DNA of 43,856 nucleotides from Escherichia phage GertrudWoker_Bas73 (PQ850603.1), one strand, 5' to 3'; positions 4,440-41,912 are shown, counted from the stretch's first letter. A program made the numbers and translations. The notes: a model not told the origin generated them from the sequence alone.

Positions 4440-4900
4440 TGATGGGCTTTTTCAAAGTAACTGATGTGCCGTCACGTCGCGTAGTCCAGTACGCTCGGGT
4501 GTCTGGCTCCGGTGAGAACGTAACCTACGTTGAGGATGAAAGTGTACTAGGTACACCTGTAGACGAGATGCCGTACGCAGACAAGACAGGTATCGCACTC
4601 TCTGCCGCTGGTATGCTTTATGAAATTCCGTATCTGGCGGACGCTGGTGACGTGTATTTCTCTGTGCAACCGAAAGACACTGAACTTACAGATGACAGCG
4701 CAACTATCACTGTCGAAGTTAAGGCGGGTAAAGCACCGTATGCCCTGACCTGGTACAAAGACGGTAAGGAAGTGGTAAACGCCCCGGAAGAGGCCTTGTC
4801 TCTGACGGTTAATGCAGTTGGTGAATACTTCGTTAAAGTTACCGATGCCGGTGGCGTAGAGGCCGTCAGTAAAGCGGCGAAGGTCGCTAAACCAGAATGA
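4439..4900 (+). CDS. hypothetical protein with C-terminal Ig-like segment
   Basis: start overlaps upstream stop (ATGATG); C-terminal 'YALTWYKDGKEV...GEYFVKVTD' resembles Ig-like beta-sandwich domains. Confidence 0.4.
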   Translation: MMGFFKVTDVPSRRVVQYARVSGSGENVTYVEDESVLGTPVDEMPYADKTGIALSAAGMLYEIPYLADAGDVYFSVQPKDTELTDDSATITVEVKAGKAPYALTWYKDGKEVVNAPEEALSLTVNAVGEYFVKVTDAGGVEAVSKAAKVAKPE

Positions 4901-4903
4901 TAA

Positions 4904-4930
4904 AAGGCCCCATTAAGGGGCCTTAGTTTT
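4904..4930. terminator. bidirectional hairpin terminator between convergent genes
   Basis: 'aaggcccc attaa ggggcctt' with T-run 'agtttt' downstream and A-run upstream. Confidence 0.6.
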
Positions 4931-5133
4931 CAACGGAATCTTGTGTTTAAATCCTGCTCATGGACAACCCTCAGAACAGTGTCATAATCCCCGTATCTTC
5001 CAGGTTCAAATATATCTAATGCCTTGTAAGCAGACATTGCGTCAAGGAAAACCTGCAGAACCTTTTTAACCCGGCACAAGTCACCGTCGAACTCTTCATC
5101 GAACTCTTGAACTACTTCGCAAATTGCATACAT
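4930..5133 (-). CDS. hypothetical small protein (67 aa)
   Basis: minus-strand ORF with GGAGG RBS (complement of 5140-5144) and its own promoter at 5161-5189. Confidence 0.5.
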   Translation of the reverse strand: MYAICEVVQEFDEEFDGDLCRVKKVLQVFLDAMSAYKALDIFEPGRYGDYDTVLRVVHEQDLNTRFR

Positions 5134-5160
5134 TTTTCACCTCCTGTTTAAGTTAACTGA

Positions 5161-5189
5161 ATAGTACCCTATTATATTGGGGTGTGCAA
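5161..5189 (-). promoter_or_regulatory. sigma70-like promoter TTGCAC-N17-TACTAT with embedded AATAGGGTACTATT palindrome
   Basis: minus strand reads 'TTGCACaccccaatataatagggTACTATtcag' about 25 nt upstream of the 4930..5133 start. Confidence 0.5.
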
Positions 5190-5241
5190 ACTATTTATTT
5201 ACGTATTCCAGTTATTCCACCGAATTGTAAATGTTGGAATA

Positions 5242-5257
5242 AACTATTCGAATAGTT
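5242..5257. repeat. perfect 16-bp palindrome AACTATTCGAATAGTT
   Basis: self-complementary; overlaps the -35 of the promoter at 5256-5284; carries the same CTATTC/GAATAG half-sites as the promoter operators. Confidence 0.6.
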
Positions 5258-5284
5258 GACTTTTCACTGAAAATGTGCTAAGCT
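5256..5284 (+). promoter_or_regulatory. sigma70-like promoter TTGACT-N17-TAAGCT
   Basis: spacing fits consensus; about 225 nt upstream of the Rz start, so it drives a long leader or a short RNA. Confidence 0.35.
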
Positions 5285-5464
5285 CCACCTGAGCTTGTGA
5301 AGTATGAACAAGCGACCGCGGCGCGGGCAGGTAACGGAGCGGGACGTAAGTCCTGAGTGTAGTTACGCTGACGCGTTCGGAAGGGCCATACTCTATTGCT
5401 TGTGTAAAAAGTAACAGGTTTACTTAGATTACGCCGTTTCTATGTTTAAATGATAAGGACTAGC

Positions 5465-5490
5465 GCCCTGCTTTAAGGCAGGGCTTTACT
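5465..5490 (+). terminator. stem-loop / weak terminator in spanin leader
   Basis: 'gccctgc tttaag gcagggc' followed by 'ttt'; located 20 nt upstream of Rz RBS 'gaaagggg'. Confidence 0.35.
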
Positions 5491-5508
5491 TATCGAGAAA
5501 GGGGAAAC

Positions 5509-6004: not shown

Positions 6005-6086
6005 TTGCCTTGTATGTTGGAATAATTTATTCTTGACATGTAAATCCGGGAGGCCCGGATTCCAACGTCCAGGGGACATACTGACT

Positions 6087-12506: not shown

Positions 12507-12737
12507 TTACTCATCAATGTTACTCCTGTACTCCCGTAACTTTTCCAGACTTTCAATTGCTTCCGCTAAGTCGGTTCCGGTGTCCTTGTGTCCACGTAAA
12601 CCCATGCACAATAGCTTCTTCAATGCGTGCTGTAACGCCGGGTCGCGGATGTCGAAAGCGCGGAGCACATCATAAACGTCTACTGTCATAGTGCTGCCGT
12701 GAGTATTTGTCATTGTGCGGTTGTATTTTGAAGTCAT
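12507..12737 (-). CDS. hypothetical protein coupled to the metallophosphoesterase
   Basis: start overlaps stop of 12734..13864 (ATGA on minus strand); no recognisable motif. Confidence 0.5.
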   Translation of the reverse strand: MTSKYNRTMTNTHGSTMTVDVYDVLRAFDIRDPALQHALKKLLCMGLRGHKDTGTDLAEAIESLEKLREYRSNIDE

Positions 12738-13864
12738 CCCAGCATCTCCGGTGAAATAGTTAAACGTGCGACCTCGCCATATTCGGCGCTATAAGTAATT
12801 ACATTTGCACTGCGGCCTGACATCCACCCGCCGCGGGAGGCATAGGCGTCTTTAGCCGCTAAGGTGCGGTGTTGCTCAACAATCATGTTACGGCTTTCTA
12901 CAATCTTCTGGTGGTGCAGGTGGCCTACGTGGGCGTAGCTATAGACACTCTCACCGAACGCTTTGCGGAATTTGGCAATCATAACCGGTTCGATAGCATC
13001 GAATCGCGCCTTATGCCCGTGGTGAAAGAACAACGTCGTTTTTCCGTGTTGCACCATCTTGTAAACATCCGGCGACGTATCGACAATCACTCGGCTGTCG
13101 TTCGAATATAAAACTGTGAACATTTCAGCCAGCCATACAGAGCCTACAGGGTCATGGTTCCCCTGTACGATAAGCAAGCGAACATTTTTATGTTTAACCA
13201 GTGCCATATCTACAACACGGCGTACCATACGAATCATGTAGCGGACGAGTTTCTGGTAGCGAGTGTCTGCGTCCAACACGTGACGCGACTCAGGTGTAAC
13301 GGCATCCAGACTATCGAAGTGCGCGAAATCACCCAGCAGGTTAATAACTCCTGTTCCTGCATCCGGTGCTTTCTGAAACGCCGCGTCGAACCAACGAGAG
13401 AACAGGTCTTCCGCAATCTTTATATCCCAGTCGTCGCCGCTCTCGTCGGCCCAGGCAAGCATACCGAGATGGAAATCAGATACCGTGTAAAGATTGAGTA
13501 GCTTGTCGTCGCGTTTGGCTCGAGTCGCTTTAGCCGGCGCAACTGGCGTAATCTCTGACTTCATGCCTTCAATCACGGCTTTCATCAACTCGACCTGACG
13601 TTCAGCGTCGGTGTCTGTCTTAACCCATTGCAACTTAGTATTGCCGAACTCGTCTACCAGAGACGACGTCCCTTTAATCTTGTAGCCGTCTGGGACAAGG
13701 TGGCTAACGTCACGCCCGTGGCCTACACCTTTCTTAGCCAGCTTCGCTTTACGGATACGAATAACTCGGTCTGAGATGCCGTATTTACGGGCGATGTCTA
13801 CATTCTTCATCCCGGCGTTCAATTCTTCCTGTAACTGTTCGTCGGTTATTTTCTTCTGGGCCAT
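12734..13864 (-). CDS. HTH-fused calcineurin-like metallophosphoesterase (Mre11/SbcD-like)
   Basis: motifs 'SDFHLG', 'GDFAHFD', 'GNHD', 'HHGH', 'GHLHH' in order; N-terminal ~100 aa HTH-like 'VDIARKYGISDRVIRIRKAKL'. Confidence 0.7.
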   Translation of the reverse strand: MAQKKITDEQLQEELNAGMKNVDIARKYGISDRVIRIRKAKLAKKGVGHGRDVSHLVPDGYKIKGTSSLVDEFGNTKLQWVKTDTDAERQVELMKAVIEGMKSEITPVAPAKATRAKRDDKLLNLYTVSDFHLGMLAWADESGDDWDIKIAEDLFSRWFDAAFQKAPDAGTGVINLLGDFAHFDSLDAVTPESRHVLDADTRYQKLVRYMIRMVRRVVDMALVKHKNVRLLIVQGNHDPVGSVWLAEMFTVLYSNDSRVIVDTSPDVYKMVQHGKTTLFFHHGHKARFDAIEPVMIAKFRKAFGESVYSYAHVGHLHHQKIVESRNMIVEQHRTLAAKDAYASRGGWMSGRSANVITYSAEYGEVARLTISPEMLG

Positions 13865-13929: not shown

Positions 13930-14256
13930 CTATTTACTTTCTGCGCCTATCGCCCACCCTGTCATTACCATTTGCAGACGGGTGGCTGTCAGTAGGCTAT
14001 AGAAAGCATCTCCGTTTTTCTCTACCGAACGTATCACTGTGTAGGTTACGGCCTGCGGGGGTAGGCCCGATTTACCAACCTCCACGGCGGCCTCACACTC
14101 GCGAACTGTAGAGTCCTTGAACGCCTTTACAATAGTAGGGTCGGCTTTATCAAGCACACCAGAAGTCATAAGAACAGATTCACTAAATACCTGTTCGCAC
14201 GGGGCCCCAAAAGTAGCAAAAGACATAAACCCCAGAGCTAATACTAATTTACGCAT
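13930..14256 (-). CDS. small secreted/periplasmic protein
   Basis: N-terminal signal peptide 'MRKLVLALGFMSFATFGAP'; two Cys; first gene behind promoter 14285-14313. Confidence 0.5.
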   Translation of the reverse strand: MRKLVLALGFMSFATFGAPCEQVFSESVLMTSGVLDKADPTIVKAFKDSTVRECEAAVEVGKSGLPPQAVTYTVIRSVEKNGDAFYSLLTATRLQMVMTGWAIGAESK

Positions 14257-14284
14257 AATTATACCCTCAGTAAGTTACTGGTGA

Positions 14285-14313
14285 ATAGTACCCTATTATA
14301 TTGGGGCGCGCAA
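14285..14313 (-). promoter_or_regulatory. sigma70-like promoter TTGCGC-N17-TACTAT with AATAGGGTACTATT palindrome
   Basis: near-identical to the promoter at 5161-5189. Confidence 0.5.
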
Positions 14314-14420
14314 GTAGTGTGTTAGAATAAGTTTGCGCCTAGTGTCGCACACGAAAAGCGGGTGGTTCCCGCCTGGCGCATTAACCATAACCAGTAACCT
14401 CTTAACCAAAGGACTAAAGA

Positions 14421-14837
14421 ATGAAACTTTCTGATTTCTATTTTGCCGACCGCCACGCCGCCGGTACTAAAATGCCTATCCTTCTGCCCAGTGGTAAAGA
14501 TTCCGGTGAATGGTTGCAGGTCATCGGCCCCGATTGTGACGCTGGTGTTCGTGCGGGCCGTGCCTACACAACGGCAATTCGACGCCTTACGGAAGAACTT
14601 GCGCCATTAGATAAAGAGTGCGAGGCGCTGAATAACTGGGCGCGCTATAATGATGAGAAGGGCTGGCGGGTGATGGACCTGAACAAGCAGCTTGCCGTGG
14701 AAATCGTCACCGGTTGGTCATTCGACGAACCATTCAGCAAAGAGGCGCTTGCTAACCTGTTCGACCAGTACAGTGGGTTGGCAGAGGCCGTAGTTAAGCA
14801 TCACACCGATAGCCGTGAGAAACTCTCGGAAAAGTAA
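14421..14837 (+). CDS. tail assembly chaperone (gpG-like)
   Basis: 138 aa directly upstream of tape measure gene; downstream -1 frame stays open to 15199. Confidence 0.5.
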   Translation: MKLSDFYFADRHAAGTKMPILLPSGKDSGEWLQVIGPDCDAGVRAGRAYTTAIRRLTEELAPLDKECEALNNWARYNDEKGWRVMDLNKQLAVEIVTGWSFDEPFSKEALANLFDQYSGLAEAVVKHHTDSREKLSEK

Positions 14838-25874: not shown

Positions 25875-26661
25875 TTACGGCCCCCATGAACGCCTTTATA
25901 AATTCAGCGGCTACTTGCGGGACGATAGCATTGCCGTAACCGCGCAATCGTCCCACTCTGGCGGGTACCCCATTAGCCAGCGGGAATGTGCTGGGTTCAA
26001 CTGGCCTGAATTTTCCATCCCGGCATCCGAGCCAGTCAGCATCTGACCAGAACCCGTTAGGCGGATTGGCTGTGTCAGAGATGCCTCTGTTTGCAGATTG
26101 TGGCCCCCGTTCCTGCCCTGATGGCCTGCTCCCGCCGAGTTGTTCGCACACGGTGTTGGCCAGTTGCTGCGCTCCGAAGAACAATCGATTCCTTTTGTGC
26201 GGTGCGCCGACGCTACAAGCTGGGAGTACGGCAAACCCGACGGCGTAGTCTTCTCTTTCCAGGTGAGTTTGTAAATCGCACATCCACGATTTTGCAATTG
26301 CTGCCGCAACCTGCTCCCCAAAGATGACTGGAGGGTGGCACTCGCTGATGAGGTCGAGGAGCACAGGTGCGAGGTGTCTCTGGTCGAACTGTCCGAGTTG
26401 CTTTCCTGCCGTGCTAAACGGTTGGCAAGGCGGACTTCCCGTCCATATAGGCGTATCTTCAGAAACTCCCGCAAGTCTGAGCGCGAGAGGCCAGCCGCCG
26501 ATACCCGCGAAAAAATGACACTGGGTGAACCCGTCAAGGTCTTCTGGCTTAACTTCGGTAATGCTTCTTTCATCTACAACTCCAAAAGGTATGTGACCCT
26601 GTTTTATCAACTCACGCAGCCACGCGGCTGCGCCTTTATCCCATTCATTGTAATAGTTCAT
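25867..26661 (-). CDS. DNA (cytosine-5)-methyltransferase, compact
   Basis: motif I 'FAGIGG', motif IV '[13 protein letters not shown]' (catalytic Cys), motif VI-like 'FGEQV', motif VIII-like 'KRNRLFF'; only 264 aa. Confidence 0.7.
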
Positions 26662-26849
26662 TTCGCCACCAGCACCAGCTCTTTACGCCCGAACGCCGTA
26701 ACGTTACCGGTTACGTCTTCAATAACCAGTTTACCGTTCGACTCGACGAACACCGTATCAACGGCAACAGGACGACGGGTCTTAACGTTGAAAATCATGT
26801 CGCCTGGTACGATGTCACGTGCTGGTTTGCGGTCATATTCGTGTTTCAT
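26658..26849 (-). CDS. hypothetical protein
   Basis: 63 aa; stop overlaps methyltransferase start (ATGA); preceded by promoter 26884-26912. Confidence 0.45.
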   Translation of the reverse strand: MKHEYDRKPARDIVPGDMIFNVKTRRPVAVDTVFVESNGKLVIEDVTGNVTAFGRKELVLVAK

Positions 26850-27165
26850 TTCTAAATTCCTTATATTGTTGGGGTATGTGCTTACTATAATAGTCTGCTA
26901 TTAGGGTGTCAATCTGTTTTATCGAACCAACGACAAAAACATTTGCGCCACGTTTACGTATACGCTCGTGTTCCCGTAGCTGGTGCGGGTCTGGCTTAGT
27001 GTTTTCGTCTTTCTTCACCTCGACGAACCAGACGATGCCGCCGGGTAGAATTGCCAGCAGGTCAGGAGCGCCTGAACGTCCTTCGTAGGAAAGTTTACGA
27101 ACGAGGCCACCAATAGCCTCGAATCGCTCTTTTGCGTATTTCTGGATGCGGCCCTCTTTAGTCAT
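26833..27165 (-). CDS. VRR-NUC domain nuclease
   Basis: PD-(D/E)XK-like 'GAPDLLAI ... VWFVEVKKDEN'; ~110 aa. Confidence 0.6.
   Translation of the reverse strand: MTKEGRIQKYAKERFEAIGGLVRKLSYEGRSGAPDLLAILPGGIVWFVEVKKDENTKPDPHQLREHERIRKRGANVFVVGSIKQIDTLIADYYSKHIPQQYKEFRNETRI
26884..26912 (-). promoter_or_regulatory. sigma70-like promoter TTGACA-N17-TATAGT with AATAGtctgCTATT palindrome
   Basis: minus strand reads 'TTGACAccctaatagcagactatTATAGT'; lies inside the 3' end of the VRR-NUC ORF. Confidence 0.45.
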
Positions 27166-27396: not shown

Positions 27397-27528
27397 TCAT
27401 TCCAGCACCCACATATAAATTGCGATGAACATGCCCAATATGGCAACCATCATGCCGTATTGTCCCTCGTGACAGTAGACACCGGCGGCAAATCCCGCCA
27501 GTACCGCGATAATCAGTTTACTTGGCAT
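27397..27528 (-). CDS. possible small membrane protein (43 aa)
   Basis: RBS 'gaaggag'; hydrophobic 'LIIAVLAGFAAGVY ... MMVAILGMFIAIYMWVL'; start overlaps HNH gene end. Confidence 0.35.
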   Translation of the reverse strand: MPSKLIIAVLAGFAAGVYCHEGQYGMMVAILGMFIAIYMWVLE

Positions 27529-28290: not shown

Positions 28291-30471
28291 CTACTTGGCG
28301 TATCTGTACATTTCGCTACCTTCTGCTACAAGAGGGAACCCCTCCGCCCACTCCGGTAATTCGCACATCAACCGCTCAAGCTCTGCAACATTGTATTCTG
28401 GCGTATCTGGTGTTTCGCAGATAATTTCGTCGTGTACGTGAAGCACAATAGGATAGCCGTTTGCTTCAACGTTCAGCAGTGCATTGGCCAGCAAATCACG
28501 GCACAGCGCCTGAGTACAGTTTTCCACGAGTTTACCAGAGTAGGTGTACTGGAAGCCCCACTGACGGGTTAACTGGTTCTCCCCCTGGTACTTGATGCGT
28601 ACGTTAGTAGACACTTTTCCATCTTCGTCTGTTTCTTTCGACACGCTTAACCCGACGCCCGGATAAGACATAACGCGACCCGACGGCAACGTCATGCGCA
28701 ACCACCAGCCGGCGACTTTGTTGCCGTTGTTGTCTGTCTCTACGTTGCGCGAAAACTTAACCCCCCTAGGCCCCGCGGTGAACTCTTTACCTGGATTGCG
28801 GATAGCGGCCATAGCTGCGTCTTCAATATCTCGCCAGAAAGCTACTGTTTCAGGGTGTGACTCTCGCCACATACGCTTGATAGCGTCACAGGTACGCCAC
28901 ACTTTCTTATCAAGAATATACGATGGTCGGTCATCCTTCTCCCCGGGTCGCGGCGGTCGCTTGGCTTCCTGAATACGTGCCCATTCATAGCCGCGTGCAG
29001 TAGCCGCCCAGATGTGGTCCGGGAAAGTACCGTCCATTGTTTTTGACATATCAACAAGGTCAAGTCCGAGGTTCTTAGCAAACTGAACGAAAGCGCCAAC
29101 ACCACCAGCGTAGCCGAGGCCAAGCTCGCAGGCTTTACCAATCTGGCGCAAGTCTTTGCGTTCCTTCTTAATGTAATCCGGCTCCATGCCGAACATCTTA
29201 CCCGCGGTTACACAGTAAATGTCCAGCCCGGCGCGGAACGTATCTAGCGCGGTTTCTTCGCCTGCCAGCCACGCAAGCCCCCGACCTTCAACGTTAGAGT
29301 AATCGGCGACGACAAACTTTTTTCCGGCTTCCGGGATAATGCAGCTACGCACCGTCGATGCCGTTAGCTTAGCGACATCGAAACGGCGATGCGCGCGGCC
29401 CTTAAGTAACGCTGAAATACCTTTATCCAGTTCATCATCGTGATAGTACCCACGCGCGAGGTTCTGCGGCTGAAATCCTTTACCGGCAAATCGTAATGTA
29501 CGCTTGGCTCCGCCGTACTGAATGCAACCACGACGGCGGTCGTCCGACGAGCGCCCTAACAGCAGCGGGTTATATTTCGTTGACGCTGTGGACGCGGCCC
29601 CGAGGCGCATTTCGATAATCGTGCGTGCGTCGTCCGGTAAATCATCATCCGCCAACAGGTCGTTAAGCGTAGACTTCTGCGCGTTGTGGATGCGGTGCGC
29701 TGGTGCAAGTTCACGCAGAATCGGCAGGAAGTCTTTACCAGTAAGCGAGCCGCCGTATTTGCGCTGTGCTTCTTCCTGTAGCTGGGCCTTGTGTTTTTCC
29801 ACGGCTTCAATCGCGGCTTCCGCCAGCGTCACATCAACCTTAAACCCACGGTCGTTAATCAACTGGTCCAGTTCCAGTACACGGTCTTCGAACTCGGAGT
29901 TACCCCAACGCGGCAGCTTATGGAAGACTTCACGCATCGCAGTGATGTCGCTCACGGCGTACATGATGAACATCGCCCACTCGTCAGGGTGAGTTTCTGC
30001 GGTGTAGCGGCGGATTTTGTAGTTCTTCGGCGTCGGTTTAGAGAAACGCTTAATCAGAGCCTTGCCGCGTTTATCTTTCGCGTTGTCTGCAGACACGCCC
30101 AGCACTTCGCACAGCGCATCAAGAGAACCCGGCAGCGCGTGACGGAACGCCCAAATCATAGTATCAATGGTGTTACTTACCGGAATATCAAAGTCCCAGC
30201 AGTGTTTCATGATTAGGCGATCGAAAAGTCCACCGTTGTGCCACACCATCTTGATGCGGCTGTTGGGCTTAACAAGGCGGCGCAGTGCGCGGTGTAAATC
30301 CCCCGGCATGTCGCTGCCGTCGGTGCAATCCCATACCCGCACAGGTTCGTCGTCAAAAGCATATGTACAGATAAGCACTTCTGTAGTTGGGTGTTCGGCG
30401 TAAGCGTAAGAGCCGACTTTCTTTAAATCGGCTTCGGAGAATGTCTCAAAGTCTAAGAACAGGTAACTCAT
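28291..30471 (-). CDS. DNA polymerase I (family A) with 3'-5' exonuclease domain
   Basis: Exo I 'FLDFETFS'; motif A 'DYSNVEGRGLAWLAG'; motif B 'RQIGKACELGLGYAGG'; motif C 'VLHVHDEI'. Confidence 0.9.
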   Translation of the reverse strand: MSYLFLDFETFSEADLKKVGSYAYAEHPTTEVLICTYAFDDEPVRVWDCTDGSDMPGDLHRALRRLVKPNSRIKMVWHNGGLFDRLIMKHCWDFDIPVSNTIDTMIWAFRHALPGSLDALCEVLGVSADNAKDKRGKALIKRFSKPTPKNYKIRRYTAETHPDEWAMFIMYAVSDITAMREVFHKLPRWGNSEFEDRVLELDQLINDRGFKVDVTLAEAAIEAVEKHKAQLQEEAQRKYGGSLTGKDFLPILRELAPAHRIHNAQKSTLNDLLADDDLPDDARTIIEMRLGAASTASTKYNPLLLGRSSDDRRRGCIQYGGAKRTLRFAGKGFQPQNLARGYYHDDELDKGISALLKGRAHRRFDVAKLTASTVRSCIIPEAGKKFVVADYSNVEGRGLAWLAGEETALDTFRAGLDIYCVTAGKMFGMEPDYIKKERKDLRQIGKACELGLGYAGGVGAFVQFAKNLGLDLVDMSKTMDGTFPDHIWAATARGYEWARIQEAKRPPRPGEKDDRPSYILDKKVWRTCDAIKRMWRESHPETVAFWRDIEDAAMAAIRNPGKEFTAGPRGVKFSRNVETDNNGNKVAGWWLRMTLPSGRVMSYPGVGLSVSKETDEDGKVSTNVRIKYQGENQLTRQWGFQYTYSGKLVENCTQALCRDLLANALLNVEANGYPIVLHVHDEIICETPDTPEYNVAELERLMCELPEWAEGFPLVAEGSEMYRYAK

Positions 30472-30530: not shown

Positions 30531-31157
30531 TTAACGGCGGCGACGTTCGCGGCGAGGTGCTTCATCTTCTTCGTCGTCTTCCAGGTCGTTGACGCTGGCG
30601 GCAACTTTAGAACCACCAAACGCTTTACCTTCGCCGACGTATTTAATTGCCAGCAGGTTAACACCGAGAACTTTGTATTTCTGGCTAAACCAGACTTCCA
30701 CGCTTACGTTGGCAACGCAGCCGCTGTAAACCTGTCCACCTTCAATCTGTTCGCCTTCAACGTTGAAGTCAGGCTCTACTTGAGTTTCACCTTTTTTAGA
30801 GGTTACAATCAGAGGCTGTTTCTGTGCCTTCGCTTTGAAGTAGAAGCCTTCCGGGAAGTCTTCGAACGGATTGTCGCGCTCGGCAATGTCTTTAATCGCA
30901 CATTTATCCATGTGCTTACCTTCGCCGTAGTTGGACTTCATCCATTTCTCGGCAGCGGCGGCGCCTAACGCTTCTTCGACTACCGCGTAAACGGTGTCGT
31001 AGAGCGCGTCGATTTGCGCGTGGTCGGACGGCAGGATAATAGTAGCGCTGTACTGACCTTTAGTGATTGAGCCATCGTCGTTTTCACGGTCTTTTTCGCG
31101 TTCGAATACGTTAACCCAGGCAGTGTTTACTTTACGCAGATTTAATTTCAGTCCCAT
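30531..31157 (-). CDS. ssDNA-binding protein (T7 gp2.5-like)
   Basis: OB-fold-like 'FYFKAKAQ', 'QIEGGQVYSGCVANVSVEVWFSQKYKVLGVNLLAIKYVGEG' resembling gp2.5; acidic 'DLEDDEEDE' then basic 'RRERRRR' tail. Confidence 0.55.
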   Translation of the reverse strand: MGLKLNLRKVNTAWVNVFEREKDRENDDGSITKGQYSATIILPSDHAQIDALYDTVYAVVEEALGAAAAEKWMKSNYGEGKHMDKCAIKDIAERDNPFEDFPEGFYFKAKAQKQPLIVTSKKGETQVEPDFNVEGEQIEGGQVYSGCVANVSVEVWFSQKYKVLGVNLLAIKYVGEGKAFGGSKVAASVNDLEDDEEDEAPRRERRRR

Positions 31158-31205
31158 TTGATTTCTCGCTTTTCAGTTTCAGTTTACTCCGGGATCTGCC
31201 CGGCC

Positions 31206-31234
31206 AGTGATTAGAACTATAATAGCTAACTATT
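31206..31234 (-). promoter_or_regulatory. sigma70-like promoter TTGACA-N17-TATAGT with AATAGctaaCTATT palindrome
   Basis: minus strand 'TTGACAcatgaatagttagctatTATAGT' ~45 nt upstream of SSB start. Confidence 0.5.
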
Positions 31235-31433
31235 CATGTGTCAAATAAAATTTTGCAATAGGGATTATGTTCTCGAAATTAAGCATATTGGCCGGTTCGA
31301 ACTCATCCTCTACAGGGTCGTATCGCATCATGGTACCGTTCAAGAACGTGAACGATTCCGAGTGTAGATACCCATCCCAGCGCCATACCATCAAAAAATC
31401 TTTATCAGTCGGCATTTCATTTACTTGAATCAT
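31230..31433 (-). CDS. hypothetical protein (67 aa from ATG at 31433)
   Basis: ATG overlaps exonuclease stop (ATGA) and is preceded by 'GAGGAGGA' SD formed by the exonuclease C-terminal codons; track start 31463. Confidence 0.45.
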   Translation of the reverse strand: MIQVNEMPTDKDFLMVWRWDGYLHSESFTFLNGTMMRYDPVEDEFEPANMLNFENIIPIAKFYLTHE

Positions 31434-32809: not shown

Positions 32810-33109
32810 TTACCGCCAATTGAGTACATAACTGCAAACATTCCGTACCTCCCACTGGTCAATTAAATGCCGTGTCTTATGGTCGCAGTGTAGGGCCCAG
32901 CCGTACATCGACTCGAAGACATAAAAGTCAGGCTTGGCGAAAGTCGTGCGCTTAATATGCGACACGTGACAGCCTATATCTTTGGGCCGCGGTACTTTGC
33001 CTAAGTACGCCATCTCTTCCATCTGGTGCGCACCTGACGGCGCACGTAACAGCCATAGCGCCTCTGTGTTATCCCGCCTGTCGACGGCGCGGTAGAGTTG
33101 GTAAATCAT
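32810..33109 (-). CDS. hypothetical protein
   Basis: 99 aa minus-strand ORF in replication operon. Confidence 0.4.
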   Translation of the reverse strand: MIYQLYRAVDRRDNTEALWLLRAPSGAHQMEEMAYLGKVPRPKDIGCHVSHIKRTTFAKPDFYVFESMYGWALHCDHKTRHLIDQWEVRNVCSYVLNWR

Positions 33110-33677: not shown

Positions 33678-33905
33678 CTACTCGCCGTCGCCTTCTGTAA
33701 GGCTATCGTCTATTAATTCAAATTTACCGTTTGGGTGTTGAATAGCTTCTTGCCCGCAATGGTCGCAGACAACAAGTTTATCGAACCCATCAAACTCATC
33801 CCCTACTACGCAAGAAAGTACAAATTTATGTTTTGTGCACACTTCTTGCGGAGCGCCGAAAATTGCTCGAAAACCTTTAGCTATGGCCCCAGTGATTGTG
33901 TTCAT
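33678..33905 (-). CDS. small zinc-ribbon-like protein
   Basis: 75 aa with Cys pairs 'CTKH...C' and 'CDHC'; preceded by promoter 33934-33962. Confidence 0.45.
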   Translation of the reverse strand: MNTITGAIAKGFRAIFGAPQEVCTKHKFVLSCVVGDEFDGFDKLVVCDHCGQEAIQHPNGKFELIDDSLTEGDGE

Positions 33906-33933: not shown

Positions 33934-33962
33934 ACTATAATAGCGAACTATTCACATGTCAA
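33934..33962 (-). promoter_or_regulatory. sigma70-like promoter TTGACA-N17-TATAGT with AATAGcgaaCTATT palindrome
   Basis: minus strand 'TTGACAtgtgaatagttcgctatTATAGT'; the same region on + strand carries 'TATAAT' facing the Cro-like gene. Confidence 0.5.
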
Positions 33963-34026
33963 TGGGCTTTTCTAAAATAATTAATATGGTACTATTCACA
34001 TATCAACTGACTAAGGAGTAATTGAC

Positions 34027-34242
34027 ATGCAACCATCTGAACTAGGCATCCGTGTAGAACAACGCCGCAAAGAACTCGGCATCTCCCAGCGCCGTTTGGC
34101 GGCCCTGACCGGCGTTTCCCAGGGCGCGATTAACCAACTGGCACTTGGAGTAACTCAGGACGTCCGCCCGGCAACGCTGTTCAAACTGGCGGAAGTTCTG
34201 GAAGTAGACGCCAAGTGGCTGGCGTTAGGTGAAGGGGCTTAA
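34027..34242 (+). CDS. HTH XRE-family (Cro/CI-like) transcriptional regulator
   Basis: 71 aa; 'ISQRRLAALTGVSQGAINQLALG' classic HTH; RBS 'aaggag'; only + strand gene in the leftward block. Confidence 0.75.
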   Translation: MQPSELGIRVEQRRKELGISQRRLAALTGVSQGAINQLALGVTQDVRPATLFKLAEVLEVDAKWLALGEGA

Positions 34243-36558: not shown

Positions 36559-36792
36559 TTATTCCAGGTCTTCTAAAGTAGCGGTCATTCCGCGAACTTC
36601 AGCAACAGCACTATATTTCCCGCCAACATTTTTCACGACACCGGATTTAACCAGTACCTTCAACGACCCTTCAATAATGGCTGAACTATAGTACTTAAAA
36701 TAACTACGGCGCAAGTCGATAACGCTGCACGACCCTTTTTTACGTGTTAACGAAACGACCGCCGTAAATACGCGTGACTGGAACTCGGTCAT
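36559..36792 (-). CDS. hypothetical protein with C-terminal 'TLEDLE' tail
   Basis: 77 aa; stop-start overlap with upstream HTH gene. Confidence 0.45.
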   Translation of the reverse strand: MTEFQSRVFTAVVSLTRKKGSCSVIDLRRSYFKYYSSAIIEGSLKVLVKSGVVKNVGGKYSAVAEVRGMTATLEDLE

Positions 36793-37019
36793 TTCACGTT
36801 CTCCTTAATCCACGCTTCCACTTTCTCCGGGTCAAACGTACCTGGCTGACGGCGGCCCATAATGCGAATACAACAATCCGGGAACTTCCCACTCTTTAAC
36901 CAGTTATTCAGCGTTCGACGAGTAACCCCGATACGCTCAGCTACCTCATTCTGCGTCATTCTCAAACCCTCATTATCAGTTAACGAAACAAGTATACATT
37001 GCGAATAATGGGAAATCAA
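36789..37019 (-). CDS. small HTH DNA-binding protein (AlpA/excisionase-like)
   Basis: 'MTQNEVAERIGVTRRTLNNWLKSGKFP' HTH; likely start at internal ATG (36959) with RBS 'gaggg'. Confidence 0.5.
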   Translation of the reverse strand: MISHYSQCILVSLTDNEGLRMTQNEVAERIGVTRRTLNNWLKSGKFPDCCIRIMGRRQPGTFDPEKVEAWIKENVK

Positions 37020-37306
37020 ACATAATCACACCTATTGACATTATGAAAATCTTCGTTTAAGGTGCTTCTATATCTTAGTTACTTTGATTCTTGTTCACCT
37101 TGTAAAACCGCTTAAAACGCAGCTGCGCGCAGCGCAAGCAAAGTGTTAAGCGCAAGTTTACTGAACACGAGAATTAGCGTAACTTTCCTTCCTAAGTATC
37201 TTCGGTTGCCCTGGGCAAGCTCTATTCTCATCGGCAGCATATCTCTTAAGTATCTGATTTTCTTAATGTGCCGCAGATTCGCAACCGTAAAAATGTAACG
37301 ATTATT

Positions 37307-37332
37307 GGGCAGGCTTAAGGCCTGCCCTTTAG
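37307..37332 (+). terminator. GC-rich hairpin, possible weak terminator in control region
   Basis: 'gggcaggc ttaag gcctgccc' followed by 'tttagtt'. Confidence 0.35.
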
Positions 37333-37399: not shown

Positions 37400-37428
37400 T
37401 TGCACACCCCAACATAATAGGATACTAT
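37400..37428 (+). promoter_or_regulatory. sigma70-like promoter TTGCAC-N17-TACTAT with AATAGgataCTATT palindrome
   Basis: 'TTGCACaccccaacataataggaTACTATtcac' 25 nt upstream of the 37454 start. Confidence 0.5.
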
Positions 37429-37453
37429 TCACTTATCGAAACGAGACAGAGGG

Positions 37454-37654
37454 GTGAGGGTTATGTTTAAGAAGGGTCAGTTGGTGAAAACGATGTACGG
37501 TAGCTTCGGTATTATTGAAAAGAAATCGACAGTGTACCGAAGTTCTTATGTCGTTAGCTTACTCAGGGAGCACGGGTTAAGTTCCGCAGCGTATTACCGA
37601 GAGTATGAAATTAAACTCATCGGCAACAATTTTAAATTCAAAGGGGCGAAGTGA
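37454..37654 (+). CDS. hypothetical early protein
   Basis: 66 aa; RBS 'gaggggtgagggtt'; first gene of rightward early block. Confidence 0.45.
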   Translation: MRVMFKKGQLVKTMYGSFGIIEKKSTVYRSSYVVSLLREHGLSSAAYYREYEIKLIGNNFKFKGAK

Positions 37655-38705: not shown

Positions 38706-38734
38706 TTGCACGCTAGGATAGAATAGGCTACTAT
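38706..38734 (+). promoter_or_regulatory. sigma70-like promoter TTGCAC-N17-TACTAT with AATAGgctaCTATT palindrome
   Basis: 'TTGCACgctaggatagaataggcTACTATtcat' upstream of the 38766 ORF. Confidence 0.45.
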
Positions 38735-38765
38735 TCATTTACACGAACGAGAGGAGCGACAGAGG

Positions 38766-39825: not shown

Positions 39826-40118
39826 TGTCGTTAGCAACTGACATCCTGAAACGAAGCGGCCTTGCGCCGCTGTCACCGAGAGCGAAGACACGTATACACA
39901 AGCGTCGCCGTAACGTGCTGTACCCAGAGATACAAGAACGGCGTAAAGCTATCCGCGCCTGTGGATTCCAGAACGGAAAGGCCGTGAATCTCGGTGAGTT
40001 TAAAACAAAGGAACGCGCAGCTATCGCGAACCGGCTATTTAATTACTGGAAATCGCTGGGGTACGATGATATTCCGACGAAACCACAGAGACGACAATAC
40101 ATCTGGAGACATAAATGA
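39825..40118 (+). CDS. possible AP2-like DNA-binding protein
   Basis: ATGA overlap; basic; 'GKAVNLGEFKTKERAAIANRLFNYWKSLGY' loosely resembles AP2-type domains. Confidence 0.3.
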   Translation: MSLATDILKRSGLAPLSPRAKTRIHKRRRNVLYPEIQERRKAIRACGFQNGKAVNLGEFKTKERAAIANRLFNYWKSLGYDDIPTKPQRRQYIWRHK

Positions 40119-41861: not shown

Positions 41862-41883
41862 ATCTATTTTCTGCAATGACTAG

Positions 41884-41912
41884 TTGACTATTACCTACGA
41901 CCCTATTATATT
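41884..41912 (+). promoter_or_regulatory. sigma70-like promoter TTGACT-N17-TATATT
   Basis: consensus-like spacing; ~35 nt upstream of the 41946 start. Confidence 0.5.

Follow-up and report, generated by a model that had tools for sequence, protein, structure and literature searches.

A conserved AATAG-N4-CTATT palindrome within the early promoters of a Kagunavirus-type phage: a predicted operator for a Cro-like repressor

The genome of Escherichia phage GertrudWoker_Bas73 (PQ850603.1), analysed here as one stretch of 43,856 nucleotides (the window), carries at positions 37400-37433 of the plus strand a promoter-like element in which a 14-bp palindrome, AATAG-N4-CTATT, is embedded. The element lies just downstream of a plus-strand terminator-like hairpin (37307-37327) and precedes a block of small genes beginning at ATG 37463. 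The window is a complete genome of the Kagunavirus type (Guernseyvirinae), with ~95% identity to the BASEL phage Bas72 in a comparison of 25 kb and 89-92% to XY1 in the regions compared. Kagunaviruses are siphoviruses and the group is regarded as virulent. The large non-structural open reading frames (ORFs) encode a family A DNA polymerase, an AAA_25 helicase-primase, a SNF2 helicase and a DUF2800/PD-(D/E)XK nuclease, and an RNA polymerase, a sigma factor, an integrase or a repressor of CI length appears neither among the large ORFs of the window nor in the annotations of XY1, Bas72 and the Salmonella phage Jersey.

Four elements of the form TTGCRC-N17-TACTAT, the one at 37400-37433 among them, had been described in an earlier reading of the window (the sequence-only reading). 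All of them were located at the coordinates and on the strands it gave, each containing AATAGGnTACTATT, and each was found to end 22-29 nt before an ATG with a Shine-Dalgarno sequence, in agreement with the gene starts that it had placed 20-30 nt downstream. In these promoters, here called class A, the palindrome is centred at about -12.5. Besides the block at 37463, they precede a 37-amino-acid ORF starting at ATG 38766, a 67-amino-acid minus-strand gene (4930-5133, ATG 5133) and a minus-strand cassette that starts at ATG 14256 (13930-14256, 12734-13864 and 12507-12737). The family is larger than this set of four: three more exact copies are present in a second, stronger promoter class, and the control region of a candidate regulator belongs to it as well. 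In this class B (TTGACA-N17-TATAGT) the palindrome lies in the spacer, with its centre at about -18.5. The class B promoters score 11/12 against the σ70 consensus and the class A promoters 7/12, the latter being conserved among paralogues and appearing in Jersey as TTGACA-18-TACTAT.

The candidate regulator is a 71-amino-acid protein of the Cro/CI-type helix-turn-helix (HTH) family HTH_3, hereafter the Cro-like protein, and its gene is flanked by a divergent PL/PR arrangement with two operators, set 44 bp apart from centre to centre. PL, a class B promoter, heads the minus-strand genes from 33678-33905 onward, a leftward operon adjoining the Cro-like gene, while PR, the promoter of the Cro-like gene itself, has an extended -10 overlapped by an imperfect copy of the palindrome. 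Of the other two class B promoters, that at the 31221 site precedes the single-stranded DNA (ssDNA)-binding protein gene (30531-31157) and the DNA polymerase operon, and that at the 26889 site precedes a 63-amino-acid ORF (26658-26849) and the methylase and SNF2 helicase genes. The palindrome is present inside nearly every early promoter of this virulent phage and its relatives. The coordinates of these features, with those of the degenerate sites and of a second candidate regulator, are collected in the table.

Table. Promoter-operator elements, candidate regulator genes and related palindromes; positions are those of the window unless another genome is named
Feature	Position	Strand	Details
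Class A promoter-operator	37400..37433	+	-35 TTGCAC 37400-37405; -10 TACTAT 37423-37428; palindrome AATAGGATACTATT 37416-37429, centre ~-12.5
Class A promoter-operator	38706..38739	+	-35 TTGCAC 38706-38711; -10 TACTAT 38729-38734; palindrome AATAGGCTACTATT 38722-38735
Class A promoter-operator	5156..5189	-	-35 TTGCAC 5189-5184; -10 TACTAT 5166-5161; palindrome 5160-5173
Class A promoter-operator	14280..14313	-	-35 TTGCGC 14313-14308; -10 TACTAT 14290-14285; palindrome 14284-14297
Class B promoter-operator, PL	33934..33962	-	TTGACA 33962-33957, N17, TATAGT 33939-33934; palindrome AATAGTTCGCTATT 33939-33952, spacer, ~-18.5
Class B promoter-operator	31216..31244	-	TTGACA 31244-31239, N17, TATAGT 31221-31216; palindrome 31221-31234
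Class B promoter-operator	26884..26912	-	TTGACA 26912-26907, N17, TATAGT 26889-26884; palindrome 26889-26902
Imperfect operator at PR	33983..33996	+	AATATGGTACTATT; overlaps extended -10 TGGTACTAT 33987-33995 of the Cro-like gene's promoter
Uncertain member	41879..41912	+	TTGACT 41884-41889, N17, TATATT 41907-41912; one-mismatch ACTAGTTGACTATT 41879-41892 overlaps -35
Uncertain member	5251..5284	+	TTGACT 5256-5261, N17, TAAGCT 5279-5284; one-mismatch AATAGTTGACTTTT 5251-5264 overlaps -35
Cro-like gene (71 amino acids, HTH_3, Cro/CI-type)	34027..34242	+	Pfam HTH_3 E=4e-13
AlpA-like / excisionase-type HTH_17 gene (56 amino acids)	36792..36959	-	from ATG 36959; disfavoured rival regulator
TATTA-N6-TAATA, SE1 (L004)	3781, 25391		
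TATTA-N6-TAATA, GRNsp27 (L041)	18349, 37359		
TATTA-N6-TAATA, SP-031 (L043)	14066, 26544, 33280		

The palindrome occurs far more often than composition would predict. Seven exact copies are present in the window against 0.06 expected, a count reached by none of 100 dinucleotide shuffles, and 11 copies are found when up to one mismatch is allowed (1.04 expected). Among all 5-N-5 palindromes of the window AATAG-N4-CTATT shows the highest enrichment, the runners-up being G+C-rich stems of the terminator type. The hexamer pattern TTGCRC-N17-TACTAT by itself, with two mismatches allowed, gives 11 matches for 6.9 expected, which is not significant.

To follow the motif through the relatives, 36 IMG/VR loci were fetched by way of the neighbouring ssDNA-binding protein, which avoids selection on the motif, and the other sites were anchored through BLAST of the downstream sequence. 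Assignment to a promoter required a TTG-type -35, as class A sites hold an internal TATAAT without a -35. In this search of genome and relatives, which had been proposed together with the four elements, 143 of 151 distinct palindrome contexts from 40 genomes fell inside TTG-type σ70-like promoters, with spacers of 17 bp, rarely 18; the palindrome was centred at -18.5 in 87 of them, at -12.5 in 53 and at -15.5 in three. A promoter scoring at least 9/12 overlaps 88 of the 151 palindromes, compared with 40 of 3000 random positions. Exact palindromes number 6-7 per genome in Kagunavirus and four in Jersey, and none is present in the Cornellvirus-like phages SE1, GRNsp27 and SP-031. When IMG/VR was scanned for the extended motif TGAATAG-N4-CTATTATA, the contigs with multiple hits were all Guernseyvirinae of 40-45 kb, with no independent lineage among them, and the matches outside this subfamily were single, a level close to chance by a rough estimate. 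Among 185,579 species genomes of bacteria and archaea, none contained a match to the class B promoter-operator.

Conservation is concentrated in the half-sites. At PL both are intact in 29 of 29 distinct relatives, which carry five centre variants. For the 31221 site, AATAG and CTATT are each intact in 31 of 32 distinct sequences with seven forms of the centre, and the DNA upstream of the -35 is unrelated between lineages. The 26889 site retains its half-sites in 30/32 and 32/32 relatives, with ten centre variants. The site at PR is kept imperfect (AATAT) in all 29 relatives. Some class A units come and go as cassettes: that at 37416 is kept in 23 of 27 relatives and missing as a unit in the other four, and of the complete genomes examined only the window and Bas72 have the 5160 promoter with its gene. 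The Jersey orthologue of the 14280 element reads TTGCAT-N17-TATTAT with the palindrome register shifted by 3 nt.

This pattern of constant half-sites around a free centre looks like the footprint that a protein dimer leaves on duplex DNA. At -25 to -21, where the left half-site of class B promoters is conserved, σ70 is not known to require any particular sequence, so another reader of this sequence is needed. Recognition at the level of RNA was considered and ruled out, because the sites are placed upstream of the predicted start sites and an Rfam search of the window returned no match. The hairpins that the sites could form are negligible (-1.8 to -1.9 kcal/mol, values that at three of four sites shuffled sequences also give), which together with the upstream placement points to recognition of the duplex and not to a structural element.

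The Cornellvirus-like phages provide a natural comparison. At orthologous promoters their genomes retain the σ70 hexamers, for example TTGACA-N17-TATATT before the ssDNA-binding gene, in which the spacer has decayed, and their PL holds a two-mismatch relic of the palindrome. As these promoters keep their hexamers without the palindrome, the factor that reads it would not be needed for promoter function, which fits a repressor; its dispensability, and the fact that the sites overlap core promoter elements in three registers, would favour repression over activation. In the same genomes a different palindrome, TATTA-N6-TAATA (equivalent to ATTAG-N4-CTAAT), is present in 2-3 copies per genome against ~0.03 expected, although its information content is low, and its copies lie at orthologues of class A promoters, overlapping the -10. 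Enrichment, promoter embedding, half-site conservation and the loss of the palindrome in this sister clade together support the proposal of the sequence-only reading that the elements are operators for a dimeric HTH regulator within σ70-type promoters.

As binder, the earlier reading had named two proteins, the Cro-like protein at 34027 and an AlpA-like protein, of which the former is favoured here. The Cro-like protein is homologous to 434 Cro (E=8.5e-6), the 434 repressor (E=1.1e-5) and P22 C2 (E=5e-3). Its recognition helix, GVSQGAINQLALG, is identical in all Kagunavirus-type variants but one (G33S, L028), including proteins that are 77-89% identical overall, an invariance to be expected of a regulator constrained by many targets. 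The gene is found in all eight complete genomes, with or without the palindrome, and in the Cornellvirus-like clade, which also lacks the AlpA-like gene, its helix is changed (GVTQSAISHLCCG). That a changed helix accompanies a different palindrome is suggestive of co-variation. A homologue search with the protein returned close relatives only, with no independent genomic context. The 71-amino-acid protein is the best candidate for the predicted binder, and it appears rather more probable than otherwise that AATAG-N4-CTATT is the operator of a phage-encoded dimeric repressor, most probably this 434-Cro-like protein, set into the cores of host σ70 promoters. The operons predicted to be controlled are the early and the replication ones, along with several small cassettes of accessory genes. 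That the promoters are active, that a protein binds the DNA, which protein this is and in which direction it acts are here inferred from sequence comparison, repression being suggested by the overlap of the sites with core promoter elements.

Several observations weigh against a Cro-like repressor. The co-variation of helix and operator is not clean: the Jersey helix differs from that of Kagunavirus at four of seven positions (SQSLITH vs SQGAINQ) and the AATAG core is the same, while the Cornellvirus-like helix is closer to that of Jersey than the latter is to that of Kagunavirus, yet the clade is devoid of AATAG palindromes. The base flanking the half-sites does differ, being T in 18 of 18 Jersey half-sites and G in 41% or T in 51% of those of Kagunavirus. 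The poor match of class A promoters to the consensus makes an activating role there conceivable. Finally, in K1B4, the only relative with a transcriptome, some palindrome-driven genes are classed as 'late' (PMC12645636). However, the 'early' class of that study (5-30 min) spans the whole 30-min latent period at a multiplicity of infection of 100, and its RNA-seq consists of per-gene abundances only (PMC12645636); sampling across the full latent period cannot resolve a temporal programme or a shut-off. By identity mapping, gene 004 of K1B4 corresponds to the Cro-like gene and gene 008 to the AlpA-like gene.

Among the other explanations, the one closest to the published record sees in the motif the promoter of a phage-encoded RNA polymerase, the role given to it in fBC-Eco01, or an N4-type hairpin promoter. 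In relatives, the dominant 'phage promoter' motif found by PHIRE is this repeat (PMC9825357, PMC7203180), with seven such promoters listed for Golestan (PMC7203180); the motif described for the Kagunavirus phages fBC-Eco01 and Golestan, tgAATAGTa-ccTATTat-T in seven copies per genome, is the same (PMC9825357, PMC7203180). These papers assign it to a phage RNA polymerase or to no mechanism, whereas here it is an element placed between good σ70 hexamers in a genome that, like the annotated relatives named above, encodes neither an RNA polymerase nor a sigma factor. With the hairpin negligible as well, this explanation was ruled out as having practically no chance of being correct, and the published label "phage RNA-polymerase promoters" is unsupported. 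No paper proposing an operator for the motif was found in a literature search. The GenBank record of Jersey does annotate σ70-type promoters at the orthologous positions 29238-29266, 32925-32953 and 39893-39920, among others, but it records the similarity of the hexamers and not the embedded palindrome. Only slightly more credible, and still very improbable, is a site for loading a processive antiterminator, in the manner of Pseudomonas aeruginosa AlpA at its binding element (ABE) or of lambdoid Q at QBE. The AlpA binding element likewise sits between -35 and -10 (PMC9371919) and the phage genome has many terminator-like hairpins, but P. aeruginosa AlpA acts as a single molecule on a 6-bp non-palindromic element, needs a σ-dependent pause site, makes DNA contacts with residues as far as position 142 and carries a Q-like ring (PMC9371919). 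The local 'AlpA-like' protein has 56 amino acids and an HTH only, and the site is a dyad that persists in the contig L031, which has no AlpA-like gene in the 29.4 of 34 kb inspected; antitermination of the Q/AlpA type, which involves a ring-domain protein and a non-palindromic single-molecule element, was rejected. Activation of the MerR type was likewise ruled out, by the 17-bp spacers and the lack of a MerR-length regulator. Another explanation regards the palindrome as a by-product of promoter structure, arising from two back-to-back -10-like elements (TACTAT and TATAAT/TATAGT) or from the common descent of duplicated cassettes. Each half-site does overlap or abut a -10-like hexamer, over ~34 bp the class A copies at 5160 and 14284 hardly differ, as duplication would produce, and the extended motif is asymmetric, with an orientation relative to transcription that is inverted between class A and class B. 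Against this explanation, one 14-bp palindrome stands in two registers with respect to the hexamers, 6 bp apart, and in a third register in Jersey; the left half-site of class B, in mid-spacer, is conserved in 30-31 of 32 sequences beside a variable centre, the opposite strand has no usable -35 (partly by inspection), and the Cornellvirus-like phages keep the hexamers without the palindrome. This explanation is judged improbable.

If a protein does read the palindrome, it could be other than the Cro-like one. The AlpA-like HTH_17 protein was at first favoured, since its gene tracks the palindrome perfectly in eight complete genomes: the five that carry 4-7 copies have it, and the three without a palindrome do not. 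Between Kagunavirus and Jersey, whose AATAG core is the same, the protein is 87.5% identical, and its K1B4 orthologue belongs to a group of four 'early' genes. The promoter of the gene (TTGATT 37019-37014, N17, TATACT 36996-36991) holds no palindrome, and the protein might be made early and then repress or activate the palindrome promoters. The co-occurrence, however, amounts to one evolutionary split, and L031 has eight exact palindromes, placed as usual in class A and class B promoters, with an intact Cro-like gene and no AlpA-like homologue in the 29.4 of 34 kb inspected. In addition, the AlpA-like recognition helix varies across genomes with identical palindromes (VTRRTLNNWLKSG, VTRQTINNWLRSG and, in K1G, VSPMTLNRWLRSG), and the protein has neither an evident dimerisation element nor a solved homologue. 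The candidate was rejected on the contig and the varying helix, and its chance of being the binder is regarded as small. Greater weight, within the range of the unlikely, is given to another factor, whether a phage protein that has escaped recognition or, on the host side, a transcription factor or nucleoid protein common to Escherichia coli and Salmonella. The imperfect co-variation described above leaves room for such a binder, and small conserved ORFs, the 63-amino-acid ORF at 26658-26849 (97-100% identical) and a 43-amino-acid ORF at 27397-27528, track the palindrome phyletically. These two were set aside, as they have no DNA-binding signature, and a NinH-like HTH protein was discarded because it does not track the palindrome, its phyletic pattern being uninformative or unfavourable. 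The class B promoter-operator was not found in any of the bacterial genomes searched, and no host-factor consensus is known to match the palindrome.

Under the favoured Cro-like repressor, the host σ70 RNA polymerase would at first use the promoters unaided. The Cro-like protein would then build up from its own extended -10 promoter, and its dimer would fill the perfect palindromes, whose centres lie at -18.5 in the strong class B promoters (TTGACA-N17-TATAGT) and at -12.5 in those of class A (TTGCAC-N17-TACTAT). A bound dimer would occlude the -10 and spacer region and so exclude RNA polymerase sterically. The Cro-like promoter, with its conserved imperfect and presumably weaker site, would be shut last, by negative autoregulation. 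In a broader and distinctly speculative extension, which is considered doubtful, the virulent lineage would have retained, of a lambdoid switch, the Cro half alone and enlarged it to a timer acting across the genome, one protein reading one operator in two registers, from which a graded shut-off could follow, and the promoter-operator unit serving as a portable cassette that wires new accessory genes into the temporal programme. Another possibility concerns the class A sites at 5160 and 14284, which lie in divergent regions: there the action could be two-way, repressing the leftward accessory genes and assisting the late operons to the right, for which a TATATT stands in the class B register with no -35.

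The predicted system resembles the Cro arm of the 434/P22 switch without being a full member of that group. Operators of 434 are 14 bp long with conserved outer bases and an uncontacted centre, and those of P22 C2/Cro are 5-N4-5 dyads, also with an uncontacted centre. The candidate is a sequence homologue of 434 Cro of equal length (71 amino acids), and the site is likewise a 14-bp dyad with conserved outer bases and a free 4-bp centre; the sites overlap the cores of the divergent promoters flanking the regulator gene, and the regulator's promoter has the weaker site. Unlike in 434, the regulator lacks a CI partner and the phage an integrase, and single sites, one per promoter, take the place of tripartite OR1-3/OL1-3 arrays; at least seven promoters are scattered round the genome, accessory-gene cassettes included, in a phage group that is virulent, and the half-site is AATAG instead of ACAA(T). 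With P22 C2 the candidate shares HTH_3 homology (E=0.005), but the operator sequence is unrelated and the other differences are as for 434. MerR-type spacer operators also have a dyad between -35 and -10, as in class B, yet their spacers have 19-20 bp where those here have the optimal 17 bp, the phage encodes no regulator of the MerR type and the promoters are near-consensus and need no activation. The likeness to P. aeruginosa AlpA ends with a small element between -35 and -10 and a neighbouring gene labelled 'AlpA-like', as that element has 6 bp, is not palindromic and is bound by one protein molecule whose ring enters the RNA exit channel (PMC9371919).

Phages of the Kagunavirus and Jerseyvirus groups rank among those most frequently isolated for use against E. 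coli and Salmonella, and their gene regulation is essentially undescribed. The analysis offers a concrete predicted regulon for them (~8 promoters, one 14-bp operator and one 71-amino-acid candidate repressor) and corrects a recurring annotation of "phage RNA-polymerase promoters" in a group of phages that lacks such a polymerase. The compact promoter-operator cassettes could be of use in engineering payload expression in these therapeutic phages. The analysis also illustrates how a Cro-type module can serve a strictly lytic phage. The predicted switch is of an ordinary kind, involves no new principle and would not surprise a specialist.

The two degenerate sites of the table are uncertain members of the regulon. 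The Jersey orthologue of the 41879 site has its mismatch in the opposite half (AATAGTTGACTAGT). At ~5242-5257 lies a 16-bp perfect palindrome, AACTATTCGAATAGTT, with the same half-sites everted (CTATTC|GAATAG), which overlaps the start of the -35 hexamer (5256-5261) of the TTGACT-N17-TAAGCT promoter. The promoter at 5256 is followed by a non-coding leader of ~220 nt (5285-5508, plus strand) that reaches to the spanin gene, without an Rfam match, in which Bas72 annotates a 36-amino-acid ORF. In the contig L027 (IMGVR_UViG_3300010278_000001), the left half-site reads ACTAG in place of AATAG in two different class B operators, and the recognition helices of both candidate regulators are unchanged.

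The AlpA-like gene and a gene for a 77-amino-acid protein (both within 36559-37019, minus strand) head the helicase-primase operon and have the appearance of a swappable module. In L031 they are replaced at 4445-5030 by genes for a 47-amino-acid CxxC...CxxC protein and a 149-amino-acid protein, and other genes occupy the place in Cornellvirus-like phages; the module may encode accessory proteins of replication initiation. Directly upstream of the palindrome-free AlpA-like promoter there is an inverted repeat, CATAAT-N13-ATTATG, at ~37021-37045 (minus strand).

For the tail operon that starts at 14421, no convincing plus-strand σ70 promoter was found in 14257-14420; on that strand the class A site at 14284 has the TATATT in the class B register mentioned above. 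A CA-rich element, ACACCAACA / ACCCCAACA, is found just upstream of early-gene Shine-Dalgarno sequences in all clades and also inside class A spacers, examples being 26860-26880 (minus strand) and the spacer at 37406-37415 in the window, with others in XY1, K1G and SE1; it may enhance translation or be left over from the duplication of cassettes. Directly downstream of the 31221 promoter, at ~31180-31210 (minus strand), the 5' leader of the ssDNA-binding gene contains a conserved hairpin, CACTGGCCGGGCAG(n)TCCCGGAGT, with an invariant stem and a variable loop in 32 relatives, which could act as an mRNA stabiliser or a translational operator.

A second conserved dyad, GGAATAAnTTATTC, lies upstream of TTGAC-type -35 hexamers in the late (spanin/scaffold) region, abutting the hexamer at 6019-6038 and standing 6 bp away from it at 5236-5249, with extra TTATTCC copies at ~5206-5222. 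It is present in all three genera (also in Jersey, L003, at 7256 and 8012, and in SE1, GRNsp27 and SP-031), including those without the AATAG palindrome, and may be an activator site of late promoters.

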